Program-made: the position numbers and the translations under genes | In this document: piece after piece, positions 39,887-49,329 of the stretch | How the letters are laid out: the number at the start of each line of letters is the position of its first letter | Position numbering within the stretch: position 1 is the first letter of the stretch | Assembly (NCBI RefSeq): GCF_056746865.1 | Contig: NZ_CM163382.1 | Direction: 5' to 3' (one strand) | Length of the DNA stretch: 64,000 nt | The notes under the pieces: generated by a model | What the model saw: only the letters and a program-made list of their open reading frames with translations | The model's database searches: none | Told to the model about the DNA's origin: nothing

Positions 39887-40771
39887 TCAGAACAGACGAT
39901 CCCACAGTGTGACCAGCAAGTGGATAATGCGGTCCCGGGCCTTACGCAGAAGCTGTAACATCCAGGCCGGAAAGCTGAATTGGGCAACGGCAGCGTCAAA
40001 GCTTTTCCCGATGGCGTCACCAAAAGTTTGTTGTGCGTGTTTCCGGGCCTGTTCAGAGCGGTTTTCCCCCCGGATATGTGAATAAACTGCGCTGGTTGCC
40101 TGTGGTGGCAGTGCGTGGATCATCAGCGACACCAGTGCCGGAAGATTCCAGCCGACAGGTGCGGCAACGGAGAGTACCGGAAATGATGACGGGAACAGGG
40201 TTGCCACCCGGGCTGTTACTGTCGCCAGTGAGAGTTCCTGCTGACGGGACGGGCATTTTTCTGTGTCGTTCCATTCTTCAGCAGGAAACACGCGATCGGC
40301 ATGGCTGAGAACAAACAGAAAACGCGAGGGATCTGCACCTTCATTCAGTAAAAACTGATGCATGGCAATATCAGCAGCATACGCACGTTCATCAGCCCGC
40401 AGGATCCAGATAATCAGATCCAGTTCCGGCAGTAACTGACGGTAAAGCTCCCGGTATTCCTGATCATGCTGCGGTGTCTCACCAATGCCGGGCATATCGA
40501 CCAGCGTCATTCTGCGTTCACCGAGCTGCAGGGTAAGACGATGAGCCTGGCGGGTGCAGCCGTTCAGGGGATGCGTGGCGCAGATACGGGACTGAAAAAT
40601 GGCATTACACAGACTGCTTTTGCCGGTGCCGGATTTACCCATAATGCCAATTACGGGCTCGTAATGAATAACACCGTGGAGATGTTCAAGGATTTTCTGG
40701 CGAATTTCTTCAGGAAGAAACGTCAGATATGATTTTACTTGTGCAGAGAGGGAAGAATGGCTGAATGACAT
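39887..40771 (-). CDS. P-loop GTPase, YfjP/YeeP/YkfA family
   Basis: 294-aa ORF with G1 motif GIMGKSGTGKSS and G3 motif DMPGIGE. Confidence 0.8.
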   Translation of the reverse strand: MSFSHSSLSAQVKSYLTFLPEEIRQKILEHLHGVIHYEPVIGIMGKSGTGKSSLCNAIFQSRICATHPLNGCTRQAHRLTLQLGERRMTLVDMPGIGETPQHDQEYRELYRQLLPELDLIIWILRADERAYAADIAMHQFLLNEGADPSRFLFVLSHADRVFPAEEWNDTEKCPSRQQELSLATVTARVATLFPSSFPVLSVAAPVGWNLPALVSLMIHALPPQATSAVYSHIRGENRSEQARKHAQQTFGDAIGKSFDAAVAQFSFPAWMLQLLRKARDRIIHLLVTLWDRLF

Positions 40772-40955
40772 ACCGGTATCCTGTTGATTTCGCTGAACCG
40801 GATCACACTAATCCGGTTTATCATTCAGGTAATATGGACGTGAAAAATGATGGAATGTCTGAATTACGGACATGATTGTTAAAGTGTAATGGAGTATGAA
40901 GTGAGTTTTTCCGAACGGGAACTAATGACATACTGCGGTTTCAGGAGATGAGAGG

Positions 40956-42086
40956 ATGACCGGACGTAAAAACAAATGTGTCAGAAAAAATTGTAACAAT
41001 CAGGTTTTCTCAGTAAAAATGGCAGTGGAGAAAAGACTGTGCAGAAAACATTATGAGAGGTTTTGTGAGCTCAAAAAAAGAAGAGAGCAAAATCCTGTTC
41101 ACAGATTAAATGAAGCATTGCCAAGAAAGATAAAAGGACCAAAAAGTAAGAAAAAATTAGTAAAAGAAAGAGAAATCATTAACAGCAGAAAAAAACATAA
41201 ACAGGAGCAGGGACCATCGCTGACTGAACTTAATAAAAAAGTTCGTGAGATACTGAAAACTCCTGCATGGAGAACGCTGGAAACGAGAATTCGAAGAAAC
41301 GGAATCACATTTAAGTCAAAAGCAGAGTTAGATGCGCTTTCTGAACTTTATGCAATTTATTCATGGGTTTCATATTGCAAACGGGGCGATAATTATTCTG
41401 TGTGGTTTTTGAATTGTCCGGATGTAAATATAAACCTTCATGTGTGCGAATGCCGGTCTTCTGAAAGCGATTGTTATCTGCCATCTCGTTTTATTATTCT
41501 TCCAGCTCCATTAAGGCAAAAAGTAAAAAGAAAATACTCGGCTAATTCGTCTGGGGTACCAGGACATAATGATTCAAAAAGTCTTTATAAGACAGTTTTG
41601 TCTGTTTGTGGTGGGAAAAGAGAAACCGAATTGTTCTTTTATTCACTGCCAGTAAAGACTAATCATCATCCTTACTGGATTAAAAGTGGTGTGGTTAAAA
41701 GATTTCCTCCTGTTTTTGGTTTGTTGTTTTATGAACAGGAAAGATTAACAGGAGGTGTTTTTCGTTATGTGTTGATAAGGTTTTATAATACTTTTAAGGA
41801 GAATTTGTTTTTTGTTGAGATTGTCTCGTGCTGTTTTCTTGTTGAGCTTTTTCATGATATTGATTCGTTTTTTATAAATCAACGATTAAGTAAGCTGGAA
41901 AGTTTTATAGATAAGTGGAGGGAGGGTAAAGAAATCTGGATAAAAGCATATCTACAACTGATACATAATACATTGGGAATAACTGAAACAGAAAAACTCG
42001 TCAATCTATATAATTCATTTTTTACTGATAAAGTGGTTATCTGGGATGAATCAGTAAAAAAAGTTAAGTGGATTTATGAGAAATAG
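40956..42086 (+). CDS. Orphan hypothetical protein in AT-rich cargo locus (Lys/Arg- and Cys-rich N-terminus, aromatic-rich C-terminal half)
   Basis: 376-aa ORF with GGAG-like RBS (ggagatgagagg) before ATG; markedly AT-rich codon usage compared with flanking genes; no family recognised. Confidence 0.6.
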   Translation: MTGRKNKCVRKNCNNQVFSVKMAVEKRLCRKHYERFCELKKRREQNPVHRLNEALPRKIKGPKSKKKLVKEREIINSRKKHKQEQGPSLTELNKKVREILKTPAWRTLETRIRRNGITFKSKAELDALSELYAIYSWVSYCKRGDNYSVWFLNCPDVNINLHVCECRSSESDCYLPSRFIILPAPLRQKVKRKYSANSSGVPGHNDSKSLYKTVLSVCGGKRETELFFYSLPVKTNHHPYWIKSGVVKRFPPVFGLLFYEQERLTGGVFRYVLIRFYNTFKENLFFVEIVSCCFLVELFHDIDSFFINQRLSKLESFIDKWREGKEIWIKAYLQLIHNTLGITETEKLVNLYNSFFTDKVVIWDESVKKVKWIYEK

Positions 42087-42629
42087 TACCATTTAACTGA
42101 AAGCCACCATAACGTCTTTTTGACTACATCCATGATAATGAGTCTCATTTTGATTTCGTTTTTTTTGTTTCGGGAAATTTTCCGAACATCAGTGATAATG
42201 AGGGTTTTGTTGTTTTTGTTTCTGCAATGTTTGAGGGCTGTTCCTGGAGATGATTCGTTGCTTGTGAGCAAGAGGTGGTCCGCTTTACTGGACAAGTTTT
42301 GCATTTGTTGAGTGGTGAAATGGAAGTAAAAAGAGCCCCTTTCTGGCAATGACTGAAAAAGTCAGTAGCGTGTGACAGTAAAAACTAACATAAAGTGATT
42401 ATCGTATGATTATGACAATGACTTATAACTTTTATGAAAAGAACAACAGAAACTATGAAACCATAGCAGATTCCTGAGACCATGTTTTCTGAGGTAGAGA
42501 AAATAATTCAAGAGTAAACCAGTTTGTTTTTTGGTCAGTAAAGAACCATGCCTGATGTGAAAACGGGTAATCAACATTCAGTCTGCATGAATGTCTGAGA
42601 ATGTTGCTAATGTCGGTATGATACTATAT

Positions 42630-42725
42630 ACACGTATTTTACTAAGTATTTTTACTAAGCATTTCAGTAAGTGTTTTACCAGACATACACGTGTTTTCAT
42701 AAACAGCCCTATAAGTGTTTTCATT
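42630..42725. repeat. Cluster of degenerate ~12-bp direct repeats (iteron-like) in AT-rich intergenic region
   Basis: Motif (A/T)(C/A)TAAG(T/C)(A/G)TTTT / ACACGT(A/G)TTTT recurs at about 42634, 42646, 42659, 42671, 42691 and 42715, first four with ~12-bp spacing. Confidence 0.5.
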
Positions 42726-43601
42726 AAGCATTGCTGTACACATTGCTTTGTCTGAAACACATCCAGTTTAGTAAATCTTTACGTTAGCTAAAATCAGTTT
42801 AAAGCTGCTGTAAAACCTTTCTGTTTAAGCAATCAATCTGCTATTCGATTTTACTGATGTTGCGTTTAACCTTTTCTGAGTTTTTGTGTTTTTAGTCGTT
42901 AACCTGAGACAAGTGTCTTTACGTAAAAACGCAAATCCGACTGAGATAACCTGGTGTGATTTACGGTGTGCTTGCGACGATTTTGTTAAATGGTTCTATG
43001 GATGATTTTGTGACGATGAGATTGATGAGATGATTAACTGGCCCTGGTGTTTTTTCTCAGTGCAAGGTGATTATCTTCATCATAAGGCTCTTTTCAGAAA
43101 AAGCGTGATGATTGGTTCTGGTGTTTTGATTCAGATGAGATTTACGTTATCGATGGTTAATCGTTTTTATGGTGTGTTGAAAAGTAACGTTTTCACGATA
43201 AGAAAATCGATTCTGATATTGGTGAACTTTGTTCTTGTGGCAGGGTTATCTGTAAACAGGTTTTAAGTGCGCTATTCGGCTCTGTGATTGAGTTGTGTGG
43301 TTAAGCTGTAGGTTTTGGTGTTGTTGTTGATTTACAGCGCCAGAAAGCGTTCTGATTGCGTTTTTGATGTTTTGTTTGCACGTTCTGTTGATCCGTTTCC
43401 CTTCAGGCTTTGTAGTTTTTAAAAACCATTTATGCCGTTGTTGTGTGTTTTATCCTGCGTGTAGGTTTATCTTTTCTTCGTGGGGGATTCATTCTGTTTT
43501 AATCAGGAGCCATTGGCGTTGCTCAATGGCGGGATGCCGTAAAGTTTTACCGCAGTGATTAATGATGTGAAGTCAATCCAAATCAACGGAGATCTCTCAT
43601 C

Positions 43602-44333
43602 ATGAATCAACCAATACACAATGCTTACTGGTTATCCCGTTTTGAAAGTATTCTCAACAGTGCCCTGGCGCAACACCGTGCCGTCTCGTTAATCCGGGTG
43701 GATTTACGTTTCCCTGAGTATATGCCTGCCACCATCATGGATACCGATTTAGATTCAGCGGTGATTTCTCGTTTTTTTGCATCCCTGAAAGCAAAAATTC
43801 AGGCTTACCAGCGACATAAACGACGTGCCAACAAGCGTGTGCGTGCAACCACTCTGCGTTATTTCTGGTGTCGGGAGTTTGGCAAGGAAAAAGGCAGGAA
43901 ACATTATCACGTGATATTACTGCTCAACAAAGATACCTGGTGCTCGCCAGGGGATTTCACCGTTCCTTCTTCGCTGGCGACACTGATCAAGCTGGCATGG
44001 TGTAGTGCTCTGCATCTTGAGCCCTGGCAGGGTAATGGACTGGTTCATTTTTCCAGGCGGACGCCTTTCCGTAAACCGACATCATCTGATGCTCGCCCTT
44101 CTTCCGATGATACGCCTTTGTCGGGTGGATGTTCTGATACCAGGAAGGCTTCAGACAAAAAGCCGGGTGAAGCCGCTGTTCTCTGGATCAAGCGTGGTGA
44201 TGTGGAAGCGCTGCAGAAAGCCCGGAACAGAGCCAGTTATCTCGTGAAATATGAGACGAAGCAGCATGACGGTTCCGGGCAACGTAATTATGGTTGCAGT
44301 CGTGGGCCGGGGCGTCTGCTGGATGGCAGGTGA
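43602..44333 (+). CDS. Inovirus Gp2-like / YagK-YfjJ family protein with HUH-type and YxxKYxxK motifs
   Basis: 243-aa ORF; contains HYHVILLL (HUH-like) and SYLVKYETK (rolling-circle Rep motif-3-like). Confidence 0.7.
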   Translation: MNQPIHNAYWLSRFESILNSALAQHRAVSLIRVDLRFPEYMPATIMDTDLDSAVISRFFASLKAKIQAYQRHKRRANKRVRATTLRYFWCREFGKEKGRKHYHVILLLNKDTWCSPGDFTVPSSLATLIKLAWCSALHLEPWQGNGLVHFSRRTPFRKPTSSDARPSSDDTPLSGGCSDTRKASDKKPGEAAVLWIKRGDVEALQKARNRASYLVKYETKQHDGSGQRNYGCSRGPGRLLDGR

Positions 44334-44689
44334 GCCCTGTAAAACGACATCCGGTGTCTGAGCTTATGCTACAGGACGTTGGCTGACGCCCTTAGCTCGT
44401 TTTCTGAAAAAGTCGTCCTGAAGTCATGCAACGGTATTTTTCTCTGCTTTCGCTCCTGGAAACACTCCGTCGGTAAAACCTTACTGTCCTGCTTAATGAT
44501 GTGAACCGAAGTCAACGGAGAGCATTCATTCTGAACCTGCATCCGGTGTTCTGTCCCTTGTCGGTTACCTGATCTTCCCGTTCTGCCGCGGTTTTTCACT
44601 TATTCCATCAACCCCATACGCAAGCCATAACACGTCAGCGCATCCACGGGCAGGACGCGTTGTGGGCTGCGTATAACGGAACATATCTT

Positions 44690-45262
44690 ATGAATGCTAT
44701 CCCTTATTTCGACTATAGCATGGCGCCCTTCTGGCCATCTTATCAGAACAAAATCATCGGCGTTCTCAACCGTGTGTTGCGCGAGCAGTCCTGCTCCCGA
44801 ATACGGCGGATCCTGCTTCGTCTGCCGGGGGAACATGGCAACATCTTCAGCGACAGAAAAACCTGGTTCGGTATGGCCTTTATCGAAACCGTCAGTGCGC
44901 TGATGAATGCAACACCCGGACGCGACCTCTGCTGGCTCCTGACACGTCATCCTGAAAAACCGGAATACCACGTGGTGCTGTGCGTCAGACAGGAATATTT
45001 CGACGGCCCTGAGCTGGACCGGTTGATTCTGGATGCCTGGAGCAACGTACTGGGCTTCGCGTCACCGGGTGAAGCAGCACCGTACCAGAAACAGATAACC
45101 CGGGATGTGGTGCTGGACAGTTGTTCACCGGACTGCGAAGAGAGACTCAAAGAGCTGATATGGGCGTTCAGTGATTTCGCCCGCGATCGTCGTGGTGTGC
45201 GCGATCCGGAAGCCCGTTACCTCGCCGGTAATCCCTGGTATCCCGTAGCAGGCCAGCTCTGA
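44690..45262 (+). CDS. Divergent Gp2-like paralog (hypothetical)
   Basis: ORF 44660..45262 (TTG-initiated in track); ATG at 44690 gives MNAIPYFD…; shares N-terminal R-h-x-L-R-x-P-x-E motif with 43602..44333 but lacks clear HUH and Tyr motifs. Confidence 0.5.
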   Translation: MNAIPYFDYSMAPFWPSYQNKIIGVLNRVLREQSCSRIRRILLRLPGEHGNIFSDRKTWFGMAFIETVSALMNATPGRDLCWLLTRHPEKPEYHVVLCVRQEYFDGPELDRLILDAWSNVLGFASPGEAAPYQKQITRDVVLDSCSPDCEERLKELIWAFSDFARDRRGVRDPEARYLAGNPWYPVAGQL

Positions 45263-45330
45263 AAGCTCAGCTCAGCAGATTCACCCGCATTTGCCCAACA
45301 TTCATAAATCTCACAGAGGACATTCTGACC

Positions 45331-45567
45331 ATGTTGACCTCAATGACAGGTCACGACAGCGTATTGCTGCGTGCCGACGATCCCCTGATCGACATGAACT
45401 ACATCACCAGCTTCACTGGTATGACCGACAAATGGTTTTACAAGCTGATCAGTGAAGGCCATTTCCCTAAACCCATCAAACTGGGGCGCAGCAGCCGCTG
45501 GTACAAAAGTGAAGTGGAGCAGTGGATGCAGCAACGAATCGAGGCATCACGAGGGGCAGCAGCATGA
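45331..45567 (+). CDS. alpA: AlpA-family phage regulatory protein (HTH)
   Basis: 78-aa ORF with AlpA-like core (…ITSFTGMTDKWFYKLISEGHFPKPIKLGRSSRWYKSEVEQWMQQR…). Confidence 0.8.
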   Translation: MLTSMTGHDSVLLRADDPLIDMNYITSFTGMTDKWFYKLISEGHFPKPIKLGRSSRWYKSEVEQWMQQRIEASRGAAA

Positions 45568-45767
45568 AACGTGTTGTAATGCCGGTACGCTGGCAATGTG
45601 CAAAATACCAGCGTTGGTATTGTGGAAATCAGCCCTGTCCCTGGTGCTGGCGACCTGCTGCCCCCGTCTGTCATTCCTCGTTCTTCGCTGTAACAGGCAT
45701 CGTACCGGTCTCGGCGTGCTTTCCTGCGTACCGACACCGGTTCAGCAACATTCAAGGGGATCAAATC

Positions 45768-46304
45768 GTGCAAATAACCGAAACCGTACTTTCAGAGCCG
45801 GTGGAAATCCGGCGTTTTATTCAGCAGGCGGTGGATCACTGGCCGCGTCTGCTGGCCGTCCACTTCACACTCCATTCGGCAGAAGGAAACATCAACGGAC
45901 AACAGATTCATGCATTCTGTACTTCCTTTTATGAACGTATTACTGAGCGTAATCACACGACCAGTCCATCATCGCCGGTGGTATTACGCTGGTTGCGGGA
46001 ACAACATGGAGGAGCAACAATGCGATGCCTGTTGCTGCTCAGCCAGACGAGTATTTGTCACCCGCGAGCCAGTGTCACAGTTGATGAACAATGTTCGCAA
46101 GTGGTGGATTTACTGCAGCAGACCTGGCGGGGGATGGATACGGGCGGACAATGTCGGGTGGAAAGGTGTTTTCAGGCTGCCCGGGGTGATACATCCGGCC
46201 AGTATATTGCGTTAAAAACAGTTGCATTGTCTCTGGGGTTACCGGTTGTGACCGGTATTACCCATCGCCCGGTACAGCGCTGTACATTGATTACAGCTCA
46301 GTGA
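45768..46304 (+). CDS. Hypothetical protein, possible third Gp2-like paralog
   Basis: In-frame part of ORF 45522..46304; GTG at 45768 preceded by AAGGGGA RBS; alternative ATG start at 45564 overlaps alpA stop (ATGA). Confidence 0.45.
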   Translation: MQITETVLSEPVEIRRFIQQAVDHWPRLLAVHFTLHSAEGNINGQQIHAFCTSFYERITERNHTTSPSSPVVLRWLREQHGGATMRCLLLLSQTSICHPRASVTVDEQCSQVVDLLQQTWRGMDTGGQCRVERCFQAARGDTSGQYIALKTVALSLGLPVVTGITHRPVQRCTLITAQ

Positions 46305-46321
46305 ACAGCGCTGTTGTGCAG

Positions 46322-46833
46322 TCAACGAGGTTTTCTGTCTTTTCGTCGGTCATTCAGCATCATTAAACGGGTCTCTGCCTCTTTCTGTTCCTGTGGTGTC
46401 ACTTCCCCGCACGGCTGACCGTTCAGGTTGTAACGGGCGCCACCTGCTATTAACGCACGGTAATAGCGCGGAGACTGCACATAAGACGCCACTGCTGCAT
46501 GTAATGTACCAGCGCCAAACGCCAGTTCTCGGATGGCGATATCCTGTATCAGGTCGTCAGGTATCCCCACTTTAAGTGGTTTTGTTTTTTTCCCGGTTGA
46601 ATGACTCAGGCCAGAGTTCCACAAGACGAATAATGCGCTTACGGTTTTTGCTCTGGCGTTTTGTCATGTCGCCACGGTGTTTTATCAGCAGGTTTCTGTT
46701 TATCGTTCAACTGTGGTATCTGGTCACCGGCCTTCATTTTGTATGCTGTGTCCGTTTTATCCTGCAGCGGCGTTGCCGGTGATTTACTGAAAATACCCTG
46801 CGGTTTACGGTTAATGGTCAGAGTTACCATCAA
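46322..46833 (-). pseudogene. Two consecutive ORFs (64 aa and 100 aa) in different frames, possibly one disrupted gene
   Basis: ORFs 46639..46833 and 46322..46624 on the same strand separated by 14 bp with a frame change; no family recognised. Confidence 0.3.
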
Positions 46834-47188
46834 TTTTGTTACCTCGCGCTGTCAATGGAAGTAGTACCTCATCCGATATCTGAAAATGTTTTCCGGTGGA
46901 TGTTACAGCGAATTTCATGTAAGACATGTTGTTGTCGGTATTGTTCAGTACTGTGCGTTGTGAGCGTATTCGTTATCAGACAGAGGGGCAGGGAACAAAT
47001 GGCGTAAACGGACATCTCAGTGCCTGAGAAACAGTACAGGTCAGGCCATCATGGCCTGCAAACAGAGCCCTGGCGACCCCGTGGCCGAAAACGAAACAAT
47101 AACCCGCGCGCAGTGCGAGGAATCCGGATGTGAAGCAATCAGCAGGTAATATTAATGGCAGGACCAGCAGGTTCTTTAAACAAACGAA

Positions 47189-47951
47189 GGTGGTGACTCC
47201 AATTAGTAGAACATATATTTTTCGATAAAGGCACCGATGACTTTTTCATGAAGTTCTACAGAGCGCGAGAAACAGATAGTTCTGCGGGCCAGACGTTTGA
47301 TTCGGGTTCTCAGAGGTAGATGTTGCGCTCAATGCGCTGAGTAAAAATCTTACCAGTCAGATGCTTCTCCTTCGGTAACTCTCTGGTGTAACTACCCCAT
47401 TCGTCAGTGGTCAACATACCGATGGTAAAAGGGCAAGCAGCGCCAGCAATTCACGACAGGTTTAATCAGTCCGTAGGCCAAAAGTGTAGGCCAGAACGCC
47501 ACCAGTTTTCGTGTTGTACGTGTACCAGAGCCAGTGCTGTCGCGCTTTACTGCCGACAAAACTCCATTGCTCATCAAGTTCGCAGATGAGTGCCATATCA
47601 GCATGAGCGACCGGGTATGACGTTATTCTTCGTGGCGAGAGTTTTTTAAAGTCCGGATGACAGTATTAATGCCGATTTTCAGCGTACGGGCAGTATCGCG
47701 AACTCCGGCACCGTTGAAAGCCATTTCAGTGATTTGCTCTTTAACTCCCGGTTTACGGGCCTCGTAACGGTAAGTGAGCTGAAGCACTCGATGACAGTCA
47801 CGGCAGCGAAATCGATCATGTCCTTTGGGTTCTTCCCGTGACGGTAAACCTGAACGGACTGGCAACAGGAGCAATGAAGGTTAACTGTGACCATGAAAGA
47901 ACCTTAAAAGTGGCTATTATACTCCTAATTCAACTAATTGGAGTCATTACC
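47189..47951 (-). mobile_element. IS1-family insertion sequence (divergent isoform), insB apparently degenerate
   Basis: Terminal inverted repeats ggtggtgactccaatt (47189-47204) and ggtaatgactccaatt (rc of 47936-47951); length 763 bp; insA intact; conserved TTAAAAAAC frameshift motif at insA end; InsB-like translation needs at least two further frame changes. Confidence 0.75.
47623..47874 (-). CDS. insA: IS1-family InsA (zinc-finger/HTH transposition regulator)
   Basis: 83-aa ORF with CxxC…CxxC zinc finger and C-terminal HTH resembling IS1 InsA (…GINTVIRTLKNS…). Confidence 0.8.
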   Translation of the reverse strand: MLLLPVRSGLPSREEPKGHDRFRCRDCHRVLQLTYRYEARKPGVKEQITEMAFNGAGVRDTARTLKIGINTVIRTLKNSRHEE

Positions 47952-49329
47952 GTATTCATAATGGATTAGGTTCAGCAGTTGCTGAAGTGCTTGTAGAAAC
48001 TTGTCCTGTGCCCATGCGTCGGGTGGGGGTTAAAGAGCGGTATGGCCAGGTTGAAACTCAGGACTTTTTACAGAGAGAGTACGGGTTAACCGCGCAAGCT
48101 ATTGTGGCGGCAGCCAGAGAGCTATTGTAATTCATGGAGTTTGTTTACCATTCTGTTTTTCTTAAAAGTGAGTGTCTGTGCGGTCACTAAACTCGGTAAT
48201 AAAGCAGTTCATTGCAGGATAAGAAGCGTTTGGTTGTGTCGTTTTACCGTAAGAACCGACCGCCGTATGTATCCATTAAGCCAGTATTGGTAACGTAGGT
48301 GCCCACCTTTTCAAACTGGTGGGCGCCTGTTATGGAGCAAAAACATTATCCGCAGAACCCCGCAGATCATTTTCAAATGAGTTAAACTTCAAATGGTTAA
48401 ACTGGCTTTGCAACCAGGAGCCTCTGTTGCCCGTATTGCCCGGGAACACGATATCAATGATAACCTCCTGTTCAAATGGCTCAGACTCTGGCAGAACGTA
48501 AGGTAAAGGGAGATGAAAAAGGCAATAGCAGAACTGAGTGACAGTGAAACCATTCTGGCGTACAGGGTTGGATGGTGAAACTGATAAAAAAACCCTCTGA
48601 AAATTCTGTCAGAGGGTGTAGTCAAAAATGGTAGATATTTACGATGCAGTAATGCTTTCACTCCGGTAATTAATTTCCGTGATTAACTGCTTTCGATCAA
48701 TAAAGGAATTGCAAAAGTGTGATCTTGTTCACGACATCGTGGATGATAATATGCCTGATGTCTGAATCCGGAAACAGTGCTCTGGCGGGTTTCATGTGAA
48801 GTTGACGGATAAAAAATCCGCACGACCAGACAGACGTGCGGTTTACGAAATTCGTAACAAGAGGCTTTTCTACGGATCACGTGGTGCGTGCCACGTGAAA
48901 TTTTTGTAGCGCAAAATGTGCAATGTGTAAATACAAGGAAGGAAAAAAGTTAAATTGGTAGAAGTCCATGCCTGCCACATGTACGTCTGCATTCCTCGTT
49001 TTGAACAGAATTCTCACCAGACATCGTGAATTTCTCATTCAATCATCAGAGATATTAACCAGGATTTTTATTGTTTTGTGATATCAGCAGTGCAGGTATA
49101 CAGACGTTAAAGTAATCAGGTTTATTATAACCACCTTTACAAAGTTGTATATGTTTATAATTTAATGATTTTAATGCCAGTCGTTTTCTGCTGCTTAAAT
49201 TGAGGTCGCATATTATACACAATAATATTCTTAGCATTATTAAATTAATAAGAGAGGATTCTTATCACTGTATTTTTGCTCCGCACTACCGTTCTGGCTG
49301 GTGAAGTAATAATACAGGAGAATAACAGA

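Follow-up and report, generated by a model that had tools for sequence, protein, structure and literature searches.

The excisionase XisF4 of the filamentous prophage Pf4 has two roles: it promotes excision, and it binds the promoter of the initiator gene PA0727 and activates it (PMC7379572). In the Pseudomonas tmRNA-site islands I23, I44 and I55, a Gp2-like gene lies beside alpA at one end and int lies at the other, RadC and a helix-turn-helix (HTH) protein are recurrent core genes, defence systems make up the cargo and movement occurs by jumbo-phage transduction, with no role shown for the Gp2-like protein (bioRxiv 10.1101/2024.08.29.610337). The CP4-57 element of Escherichia coli K-12 carries the set int - yfjH - alpA - yfjI - yfjJ. 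Here we describe a locus at positions 43602-46304 of a 64,000-nucleotide segment of an E. coli chromosome (contig NZ_CM163382.1; the whole 64-kb segment is referred to as the window, and its best matches are 99% identical). The locus comprises three genes of one strand, g1, g2 and g3, together with an alpA-type gene, and forms the mobility-side module in the conserved backbone of a CP4-57-type genomic island. Four intact frames are found on its plus strand:

43602-44333, plus strand: g1, 243 aa, carrying AVSLIRVDLRFPE, HYHVILLL and SYLVKYETK
44690-45262, plus strand: g2, 190 aa (open reading frame, ORF, from 44660; PGAP-style ATG at 44690), carrying RIRRILLRLPGE
45331-45567, plus strand: AlpA-type gene, 78 aa, between g2 and g3
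45768-46304, plus strand: g3, 178 aa (ORF from 45522; annotated start GTG at 45768), carrying RLLAVHFTLHSAE

Like Pf4, the locus encodes an excisionase-type small protein together with a candidate replication-initiator gene, but it lacks phage structural genes, and a control of g1 by AlpA is one that we infer. It differs from the Pseudomonas islands in host clade and in integration site, and no inactive paralogs have been described for those islands. The match of g1 to the YagK/YfjJ family (PF11726; PGAP 'inovirus Gp2 family protein') is accompanied by a shared neighbourhood, with alpA and the DUF3987 gene yfjI as neighbours both in K-12 and in islands of the type described here. Compared with K-12 CP4-57, however, where a single yfjJ copy lies beside int and is oriented as the GTPase block, there are three copies in the window (four in fuller relatives), they have the opposite orientation, and two of the window's copies are predicted to be non-catalytic. 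Of the two affinities that an initial reading of the window from its sequence (the first-pass annotation) had put forward for synteny comparison, the one to CP4-57 stands through the alpA, yfjI and yfjJ-type genes, whereas the one to P4 does not. The hallmark genes of P4 are psu, delta, sid and the alpha primase-helicase beside int/alpA, and none of these was found among the annotated neighbours in three related islands.

The product of g1 is predicted, on the basis of its modelled fold and invariant residues, to be a Rep-class HUH-Y1 single-strand DNA nickase. It matches PF11726 (YagK_YfjJ_C) with E=9.7e-36 and PF23343 (Rep ORF2/G2P) with E=9e-9, and it is 30% identical to K-12 YfjJ over the full length (E=1e-27), with HYH and Y-x-x-K common to both proteins. 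Matches to several PHROG replication-initiator families are confined to residues 52-115, around the HUH motif. The AlphaFold model (predicted template modelling score, pTM, 0.74) has a well-defined core that adopts the HUH Rep-nuclease fold, with an RRM-like beta-alpha-beta-beta-alpha-beta arrangement, and a Foldseek search with this model against viral models found microvirus initiators; PDB sequences yielded no match to a sequence profile of the g1 family, even at E<=10. The order of the motifs is motif 1 (IRVDLRFP), Glu92, the HUH pair H101/H103 and then Tyr213 within YLVKYETK, with Y213 placed on a predicted helix (201-214) C-terminal to the HUH strand, which is the Rep-class order. The fold, the motif order and the combination of Glu, His-x-His and Tyr are those of the Rep-class HUH proteins, such as parvovirus NS1/AAV Rep, SIRV1 ORF119, Helitron Rep and the microvirus and inovirus initiators.

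Conservation within the g1 family was assessed over 23 sequences (18 of them full-length) reaching down to 36-44% identity. Residues R32, D34, R36, P38, E92, H101 and H103 are invariant in 23/23, and Y213, K216 and K220 are present in 18/18 full-length sequences; E92, H101, H103, Y213, K216 and K220 are kept in K-12 YfjJ as well. The first-pass annotation had likened HYHVILLL and SYLVKYETK to the HUH and tyrosine motifs, an assignment that is borne out by these invariant residues and by the HUH-fold model. Unlike K-12 YfjJ, E. coli g1 contains a disordered insert of about 40 residues (153-189) rich in Ser, Pro and Asp, which is found in the E. coli alleles only and is missing from other genera. 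Many database variants of g1, 214 aa long, have a frameshift within the insert into the frame of the ORF at 44005-44247, with loss of motif 3.

The likeness of g1 to phage initiator families at the sequence level is local, around the HUH motif. A tblastn search of g1 against 50,697 phage records found no inovirus at E<=1e-3; it did find local matches to Microviridae initiators (20-26% coverage) and one unverified 4.5-kb contig. As far as this comparison reaches, 'inovirus Gp2' is for g1 an annotation label that likeness to inovirus genomes does not back, so that, of the alignments to YagK/YfjJ and inovirus gpII suggested at the outset, the first confirms kinship (YfjJ, PF11726) and the second does not. 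The 4.5-kb contig, 'Escherichia phage ECO111 5-P' (OR844780.1, L026, 1-4468), encodes a g1-like protein (42% identity) and was considered as a mini-replicon; this candidate was dropped, the record being flagged UNVERIFIED and unannotated, with 3.7x coverage, and being most likely not a phage but host island DNA present in a phage preparation.

Direct scans of g2 and g3 against Pfam, NCBIfam and PHROG gave nothing usable (g2 matches PF11726 with E=0.52, while in the Pfam scan g3 has no match to PF11726, to which it is linked through profiles alone), and the kinship of both therefore had to be established with family profiles, using per-family alignments and profile-profile comparison (hhalign). 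Pairwise BLASTP is marginal for g1/g2 (E=0.024) and g1/g3 (E=0.015) and gives no match for g2/g3. At the profile level, the g2 family matches the g1 family with a probability of 97.7% (E=2.2e-12, 130 columns), and the g3 family matches it with 96.6% (E=5.6e-10), or with 97.1% (E=4.7e-11) when a broader g3 alignment is used; the comparison between the g2 and g3 families is weak (11%), yet their alignment is in the same register. Furthermore, the hidden Markov model of each family matches members of the other families in the fetched loci. The family alignments superpose the motif-1 strands AVSLIRVDLRF (g1), RIRRILLRL (g2) and LLAVHFTL (g3), as well as HYHVILLL (g1), EYHVVLCV (g2) and MRCLLLLS (g3), and the N-terminal strings AVSLIRVDLRFPE, RIRRILLRLPGE and RLLAVHFTLHSAE are aligned on one another. 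Judged by these profiles, g1, g2 and g3 are distant paralogs, with a likeness far beyond chance. The first-pass annotation, all of whose quoted strings are found where it placed them, had described a same-strand trio with a shared N-terminal signature and had related the three products to each other and to the YagK/YfjJ HUH family; hhalign superposes the three signatures, and the profile comparisons (E=2e-12 and 5e-11) uphold the relationship.

The further proposal that only the first gene retains the HUH and tyrosine residues is true of the window and extends to the orthologs. At the first HUH position g2 has EYH instead of HYH in the window, and within its family the motif is E/C/F-Y-H, so that the second His alone is invariant (12/12); the C-terminal part holds no conserved Tyr. 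The g3 set consists of 19 sequences, from E. coli, Yokenella, Hafnia, Siccibacter, Yersinia, Tenebrionibacter, Superficieibacter and metagenomic bins. In these, the two HUH His positions are occupied by T/E and R/K and the position equivalent to Y213 by S/E/N and similar residues, with no Tyr, while the Glu equivalent to E92 (Glu78 in g3) is kept in 16 of the 19; the family has 13 invariant residues, and the g3 model has the same order of secondary-structure elements as g1. To judge from the residues at these positions, g2 and g3 are certainly unable to use HUH-Tyr chemistry. They are ancient paralogs in which the fold has been kept and the metal-binding His residues and the Tyr have been lost, which agrees with their initial description as diverged, possibly non-catalytic copies.

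The two families differ in distribution and in annotation. In an exhaustive phmmer search of 1.8 billion cluster representatives, the distant full-length relatives of g2 numbered just two (P0197 and P0201), both of them matching PF11726. Homologs of g3 carry PF27752 (UCP030791), a family whose name is functionally silent and which is represented here by a YagK/YfjJ paralog without His-x-His and Tyr; a plasmid member aligns with g3 at E=2e-58, and the PGAP names of the homologs vary between hypothetical, UCP030791, 'YagK/YfjJ domain-containing' and 'inovirus-type Gp2', some of which already point to this kinship. The frames of g2 and g3 are intact in all loci examined, and pairwise ratios of nonsynonymous to synonymous substitution rates (dN/dS) are 0.17-0.30 for g2 and 0.29-0.46 for g3, as compared with 0.17-0.52 for g1 and 0.02-0.17 for alpA. 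By this measure g2 and g3 evolve under purifying selection and are not decaying pseudogenes.

The composition of the module is best seen in its relatives. In E. coli 13P484A (L024) the order is g1 - YfjI - p4 - g2 - alpA - g3 - ProQ/FinO, where YfjI is a DUF3987 protein that matches a PHROG 'DNA helicase' family (E=8e-42) and, weakly, primase families (E=1e-4 and 7e-4), and p4 is a fourth paralog of 188 aa with intact HAH and YLAK motifs (PF11726, E=4e-6). The YfjI-p4 segment is missing from the window; either the window's module has lost it by deletion or the relatives have gained it by insertion. YfjI also stands beside HUH paralogs in K-12 CP4-57 and in other genera. In O157:H7 ATCC 43888, p4-g2-alpA-g3-ProQ/FinO is followed by dnd/dpt defence cargo, with no IS1, whereas other genera and a Klebsiella plasmid have the order g1-like - alpA - (opposite-strand YfjI or two zinc-ribbon genes) - g3-like - DUF2913. 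Among the 12 loci with enough upstream sequence to be evaluated, 11 have an HUH/Tyr-intact paralog on the same strand within 4 kb upstream of the g3-like gene, usually with alpA in between. On the Klebsiella IncFIB/HI1B plasmid (L027, NZ_CP131698.1, 6989-10387), genes for a g1-like protein, AlpA, two zinc-ribbon proteins, a g3-like protein and DUF2913 are accompanied by a divergent WYL/DUF905 block. Because the whole module and the divergent block are thus present on large conjugative plasmids, the island backbone also travels on plasmids; among the 64 plasmid records that contain a g1-like gene, 39 are classed as conjugative.

The features that surround or punctuate the four genes in the window are:

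39887-40771, minus strand: YfjP/YeeP-type GTPase gene (35% identity to K-12 YfjP, E=5e-63; labelled GTPase in near-identical islands)
40956-42086: 376-aa ORF, about 35% GC
42090-43600: AT-rich non-coding spacer to the left of g1, about 1.5 kb, GC 32-43%, with degenerate direct repeats
43539-43606, plus strand: g1 leader, 68 nt, beginning with the palindrome GTAAAGTTTTAC and running into the start codon
44446-44455: junction without the YfjI-p4 segment, at which relatives have about 3.2 kb more (blastn against L007; gene content of L023 and L024)
44473-44535, plus strand: second leader copy with the palindrome GTAAAACCTTAC, 74-76% identity, 155 nt upstream of g2
45564-45767, plus strand: Cys-rich small ORF (MKRVVMPVRWQCAKYQRWYCGNQPCPWCW...), starting on the alpA stop codon and in frame into g3 without a stop
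46274-46314: hairpin with 17-bp arms that spans the stop codon of g3, where g3 and the ProQ/FinO gene converge
46322-46833, minus strand: ProQ/FinO-family RNA-chaperone gene (NCBIfam ProQ E=6e-11, FinO E=2e-10)
47189-47951: degenerate IS1-family element with inverted repeats GGTGGTGACTCCAATTAGT / ACTAATTGGAGTCATTACC and InsA-like ORFs (PGAP 'IS1 family transposase, frameshifted')

The GTPase gene heads a minus-strand, CP4-57-like backbone block that runs leftwards through WYL/HTH, DUF932, antirestriction, RadC-like, CbtA/YeeU and ParDE genes to cadCBA at the cadC island end, which we take to be the pheU site of the K-12 map; no tRNA gene was found within the 64-kb window. The 376-aa ORF has no family match in PHROGs or PADLOC, and at its position the sister islands (L001 and L024) hold unrelated hypothetical genes, which marks the site as a slot for variable cargo, flanked by g1 and the GTPase gene. 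The spacer that follows contains short overlapping ORFs only (<=91 aa, none annotated in relatives), and its repeats include 12-13-nt tandem units at 42634-42679; it is possibly a control or promoter region silenced by H-NS, or an origin. Promoter and terminator scans stayed at or below shuffle expectation, and the single match in an Rfam scan of 40000-48500 lies below threshold and is put down to chance. To the right of the trio, the hairpin at the end of g3 has folding energies of -25.6 and -26.8 kcal/mol (z of -2.8 and -3.4) and is probably a bidirectional terminator, although it could alternatively form an RNA 3' end of the type bound by ProQ/FinO proteins. Islands of E. coli conserve the ProQ/FinO gene beside g3; in the window's lineage a frameshift divides it (PGAP 'frameshifted'), and in the annotation of O157:H7 ATCC 43888 it is a non-pseudogene coding sequence of 114 aa. 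About 0.9 kb past g3, the IS1 element marks the break in the island on the module's right; next to it, near-identical islands have a fragment of a transketolase gene and a resistance region with sul2 and floR.

As the first-pass annotation rightly observed, the module (g1-g3, plus strand) is on the strand opposite to the CP4-like block (GTPase to CbtA, minus strand). From this it was suggested that the trio is what remains of a second element, integrative or satellite-like, that lies nested within the CP4-like island and is cut off on the right by IS1. The orientation that alpA-yfjI-yfjJ share with the GTPase block in K-12 CP4-57 is in keeping with such an origin, as is the IS1-family element on the right. 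However, wherever the upstream block fell within the fetched sequence of the loci L006, L011 (Mixta), L013, L020 (Yersinia), L022 (Serratia) and the Klebsiella plasmid L027, the module is divergent from the GTPase/WYL block, and the same junction between this block (minus) and g1 (plus) is found in an Enterobacteriaceae metagenome-assembled genome. Since the divergence recurs in unrelated hosts, the opposite-strand layout is the native design of one island type. Furthermore, no second integrase or att site was seen beside the module, and IS1 does not truncate it: the element lies beyond the ProQ/FinO pseudogene, and relatives without IS1 continue into cargo genes, in one case dnd/dpt. A nested second element is, on this evidence, very improbable.

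An AlpA-type regulator was correctly placed between the second and third genes by the first-pass annotation. Sequence matches predict its product to be an AlpA-family excisionase/transcriptional activator with a small winged-helix/MerR-like domain (PHROG 2790 'excisionase and transcriptional regulator', E=6e-10; TIGR01764, E=4e-4); it resembles the AlpA protein of K-12 weakly (25% identity, E=4e-6), PGAP assigns 'AlpA family' in H10/H11, and PF05930 is carried both by read-through database proteins that span g2 and alpA and by same-position counterparts elsewhere. At the position of the Cys-rich ORF that follows, relatives have one or two separate 'putative zinc ribbon protein' genes (PF11682), and the database fusions P0064 and P0120 carry PF11682 together with PF27752; by this comparison the ORF is a remnant of a zinc-ribbon gene. 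A 246-aa fusion of the ORF with g3 is formally possible.

The second copy of the g1 leader has lost the start codon (CTG), and its frame ends after 13 codons. Palindromes resembling GTAA-N4-TTAC lie about 40-95 nt 5' of the start codons of g1-like genes and p4 in other hosts, and the exact pattern of the palindrome has 3 matches in the 64-kb window, all within 42771-44484. The repeat and its palindrome could be an operator, a promoter or an AlpA site. Two other roles were considered and dropped: a CRESS-like nonanucleotide nick site, given that the motif forms a stem rather than a loop and lies at promoter distance, and a hairpin sequestering the ribosome-binding site in the g1 leader, which is not significant (z=-1.9); the second copy of the leader does not fold.

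The reading that we favour, tentatively and with somewhat less than even confidence, is that g1 nicks DNA in a manner coupled to excision, in the service of replication or of strand transfer, and that g2 and g3 are DNA-binding or partner subunits that do not cut. An excision-coupled rolling-circle unit is suggested by the recurrent association of an AlpA-type activator, an HUH-Y1 nuclease and a DUF3987 helicase-like protein, and purifying selection on all four genes (g1, g2, alpA and g3) is consistent with it. AlpA, when expressed, would promote excision and switch on the module, as XisF4 does in Pf4. The g1 protein would then make a site-specific nick in one strand of the excised circular DNA, becoming linked to the 5' end through Tyr213, and the nick would start rolling-circle copying or strand transfer, with unwinding by YfjI where this is present and by a host helicase in the reduced version of the window. 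The g2 and g3 proteins, unable to cut, may bind DNA or act as partners of the nickase, and in this way position it, limit it or regulate it. A precedent of a kind is gpX of the Ff phages, a non-nicking in-frame C-terminal fragment of gpII that modulates replication; the likeness lies in the pairing of a nicking initiator with a related non-nicking polypeptide, although gpX is a piece of gpII, whereas g2 and g3 are full-length paralogs that evolve on their own and have a degraded active site. PADLOC defence models gave no match for g1, g2, g3, YfjI or p4, and AlpA alone gave a weak match, to a candidate-system HTH model.

Several observations weigh against this reading. The literature searched for the family holds no biochemical or genetic data on any member, and a nick site or origin was not found, the conserved non-coding signals being the leader and its palindrome, which may equally be promoter or operator. 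The g3 fold matches mostly generic palm/RRM-like domains, and dN/dS values of 0.2-0.5 represent moderate constraint only. The window is without the helicase and the fourth paralog, so its copy of the module may be defective. Finally, E. coli g1 alleles that have lost motif 3 by frameshift are frequent in databases, which speaks against a strong selection for nicking in every lineage. A wider form of the proposal, which we consider doubtful, would make the CP4-57-type islands of Enterobacterales replicative elements, excised by AlpA and copied by rolling circle with a YfjJ-type nickase and YfjI, in which g2 and g3/UCP030791 are origin-binding or nickase-controlling pseudo-enzymes; the circle might be amplified, or single strands might be produced for export, through a conjugative pore or possibly through packaging into a helper filamentous phage.

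HUH-Y1 chemistry is common to replication and mobilisation, and g1 could instead be a relaxase that nicks an oriT-like site in an integrative mobilisable element, with a helper plasmid transferring the excised island and g2 and g3 acting as relaxosome accessories. Streptococcal mobilisable elements, which use relaxases derived from rolling-circle initiators, provide a precedent, and the presence of the whole module on large conjugative IncFIB/HI1B Klebsiella plasmids, together with the conjugative typing of 39 of the 64 plasmid records, fits this. The Rep-class motif order with Tyr after HUH is, however, unlike that of classical MOB relaxases, the annotated neighbourhoods contain no coupling-protein or mating-pair genes, no oriT was identified, and replication would account at least equally well for the linked DUF3987 helicase; we regard a mobilisation relaxase as unlikely. 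An alternative without any cleavage would have all three proteins act purely as sequence-specific DNA binders that control excision or island expression with AlpA. The certain lack of HUH-Tyr chemistry in g2 and g3 would suit such a role, as would the repeated, operator-like palindromic leader in front of g1, p4 and g2 and the frequency of motif-3-less g1 alleles. For g1 itself it is disfavoured, because catalytic residues would not be expected to persist in a mere binder, whereas E92, H101, H103, Y213, K216 and K220 are invariant in the full-length orthologs and in YfjJ; the explanation as a whole appears quite unlikely.

It may also be asked whether g2 and g3 have any function, or are leftovers of old tandem duplications. 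Both have lost their catalytic residues, the distribution of g2 is very narrow (essentially E. coli and two distant relatives), and the island is visibly degraded, with the ProQ/FinO frameshift, IS1 and an internal deletion. Against this, intact frames in every locus examined with dN/dS of 0.17-0.46, the 13 invariant residues of the g3 family, the confident compact models and the occurrence in Yersinia, Serratia, Hafnia, Siccibacter, Yokenella and plasmids make functionless decay improbable.

The families concerned already have entries in Pfam and PGAP, where PF23343/PF11726 express the link to Rep proteins; in the literature searched these genes are listed solely as being of unknown function, in line with the first-pass statement that the family is essentially uncharacterised. 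What is new is the placement of g2 in the superfamily, the documentation of catalytic loss in g2 and g3 over orthologs, and the definition of the conserved module and of its reduced state in the window. Matches to part of the module are present in 2874 of 5426 complete E. coli genomes, or about half. Islands of this type carry defence systems, toxin-antitoxin pairs and virulence genes, and in the window's lineage also sul2 and floR, and their persistence and movement after excision are poorly understood. If the proposed mechanism does not hold, the gain is one of annotation, in that g2 is named 'hypothetical', g3 is named inconsistently and the 'inovirus' label is not backed. If g1 is an active nickase controlled by its dead paralogs, 'cryptic prophages' would gain a defined mechanism of replication or transfer, control by dead paralogs would be a form of regulation that the literature searched does not describe for any HUH system, and three y-ome-type families (YagK/YfjJ, UCP030791 and the g2 family) would gain a testable function.

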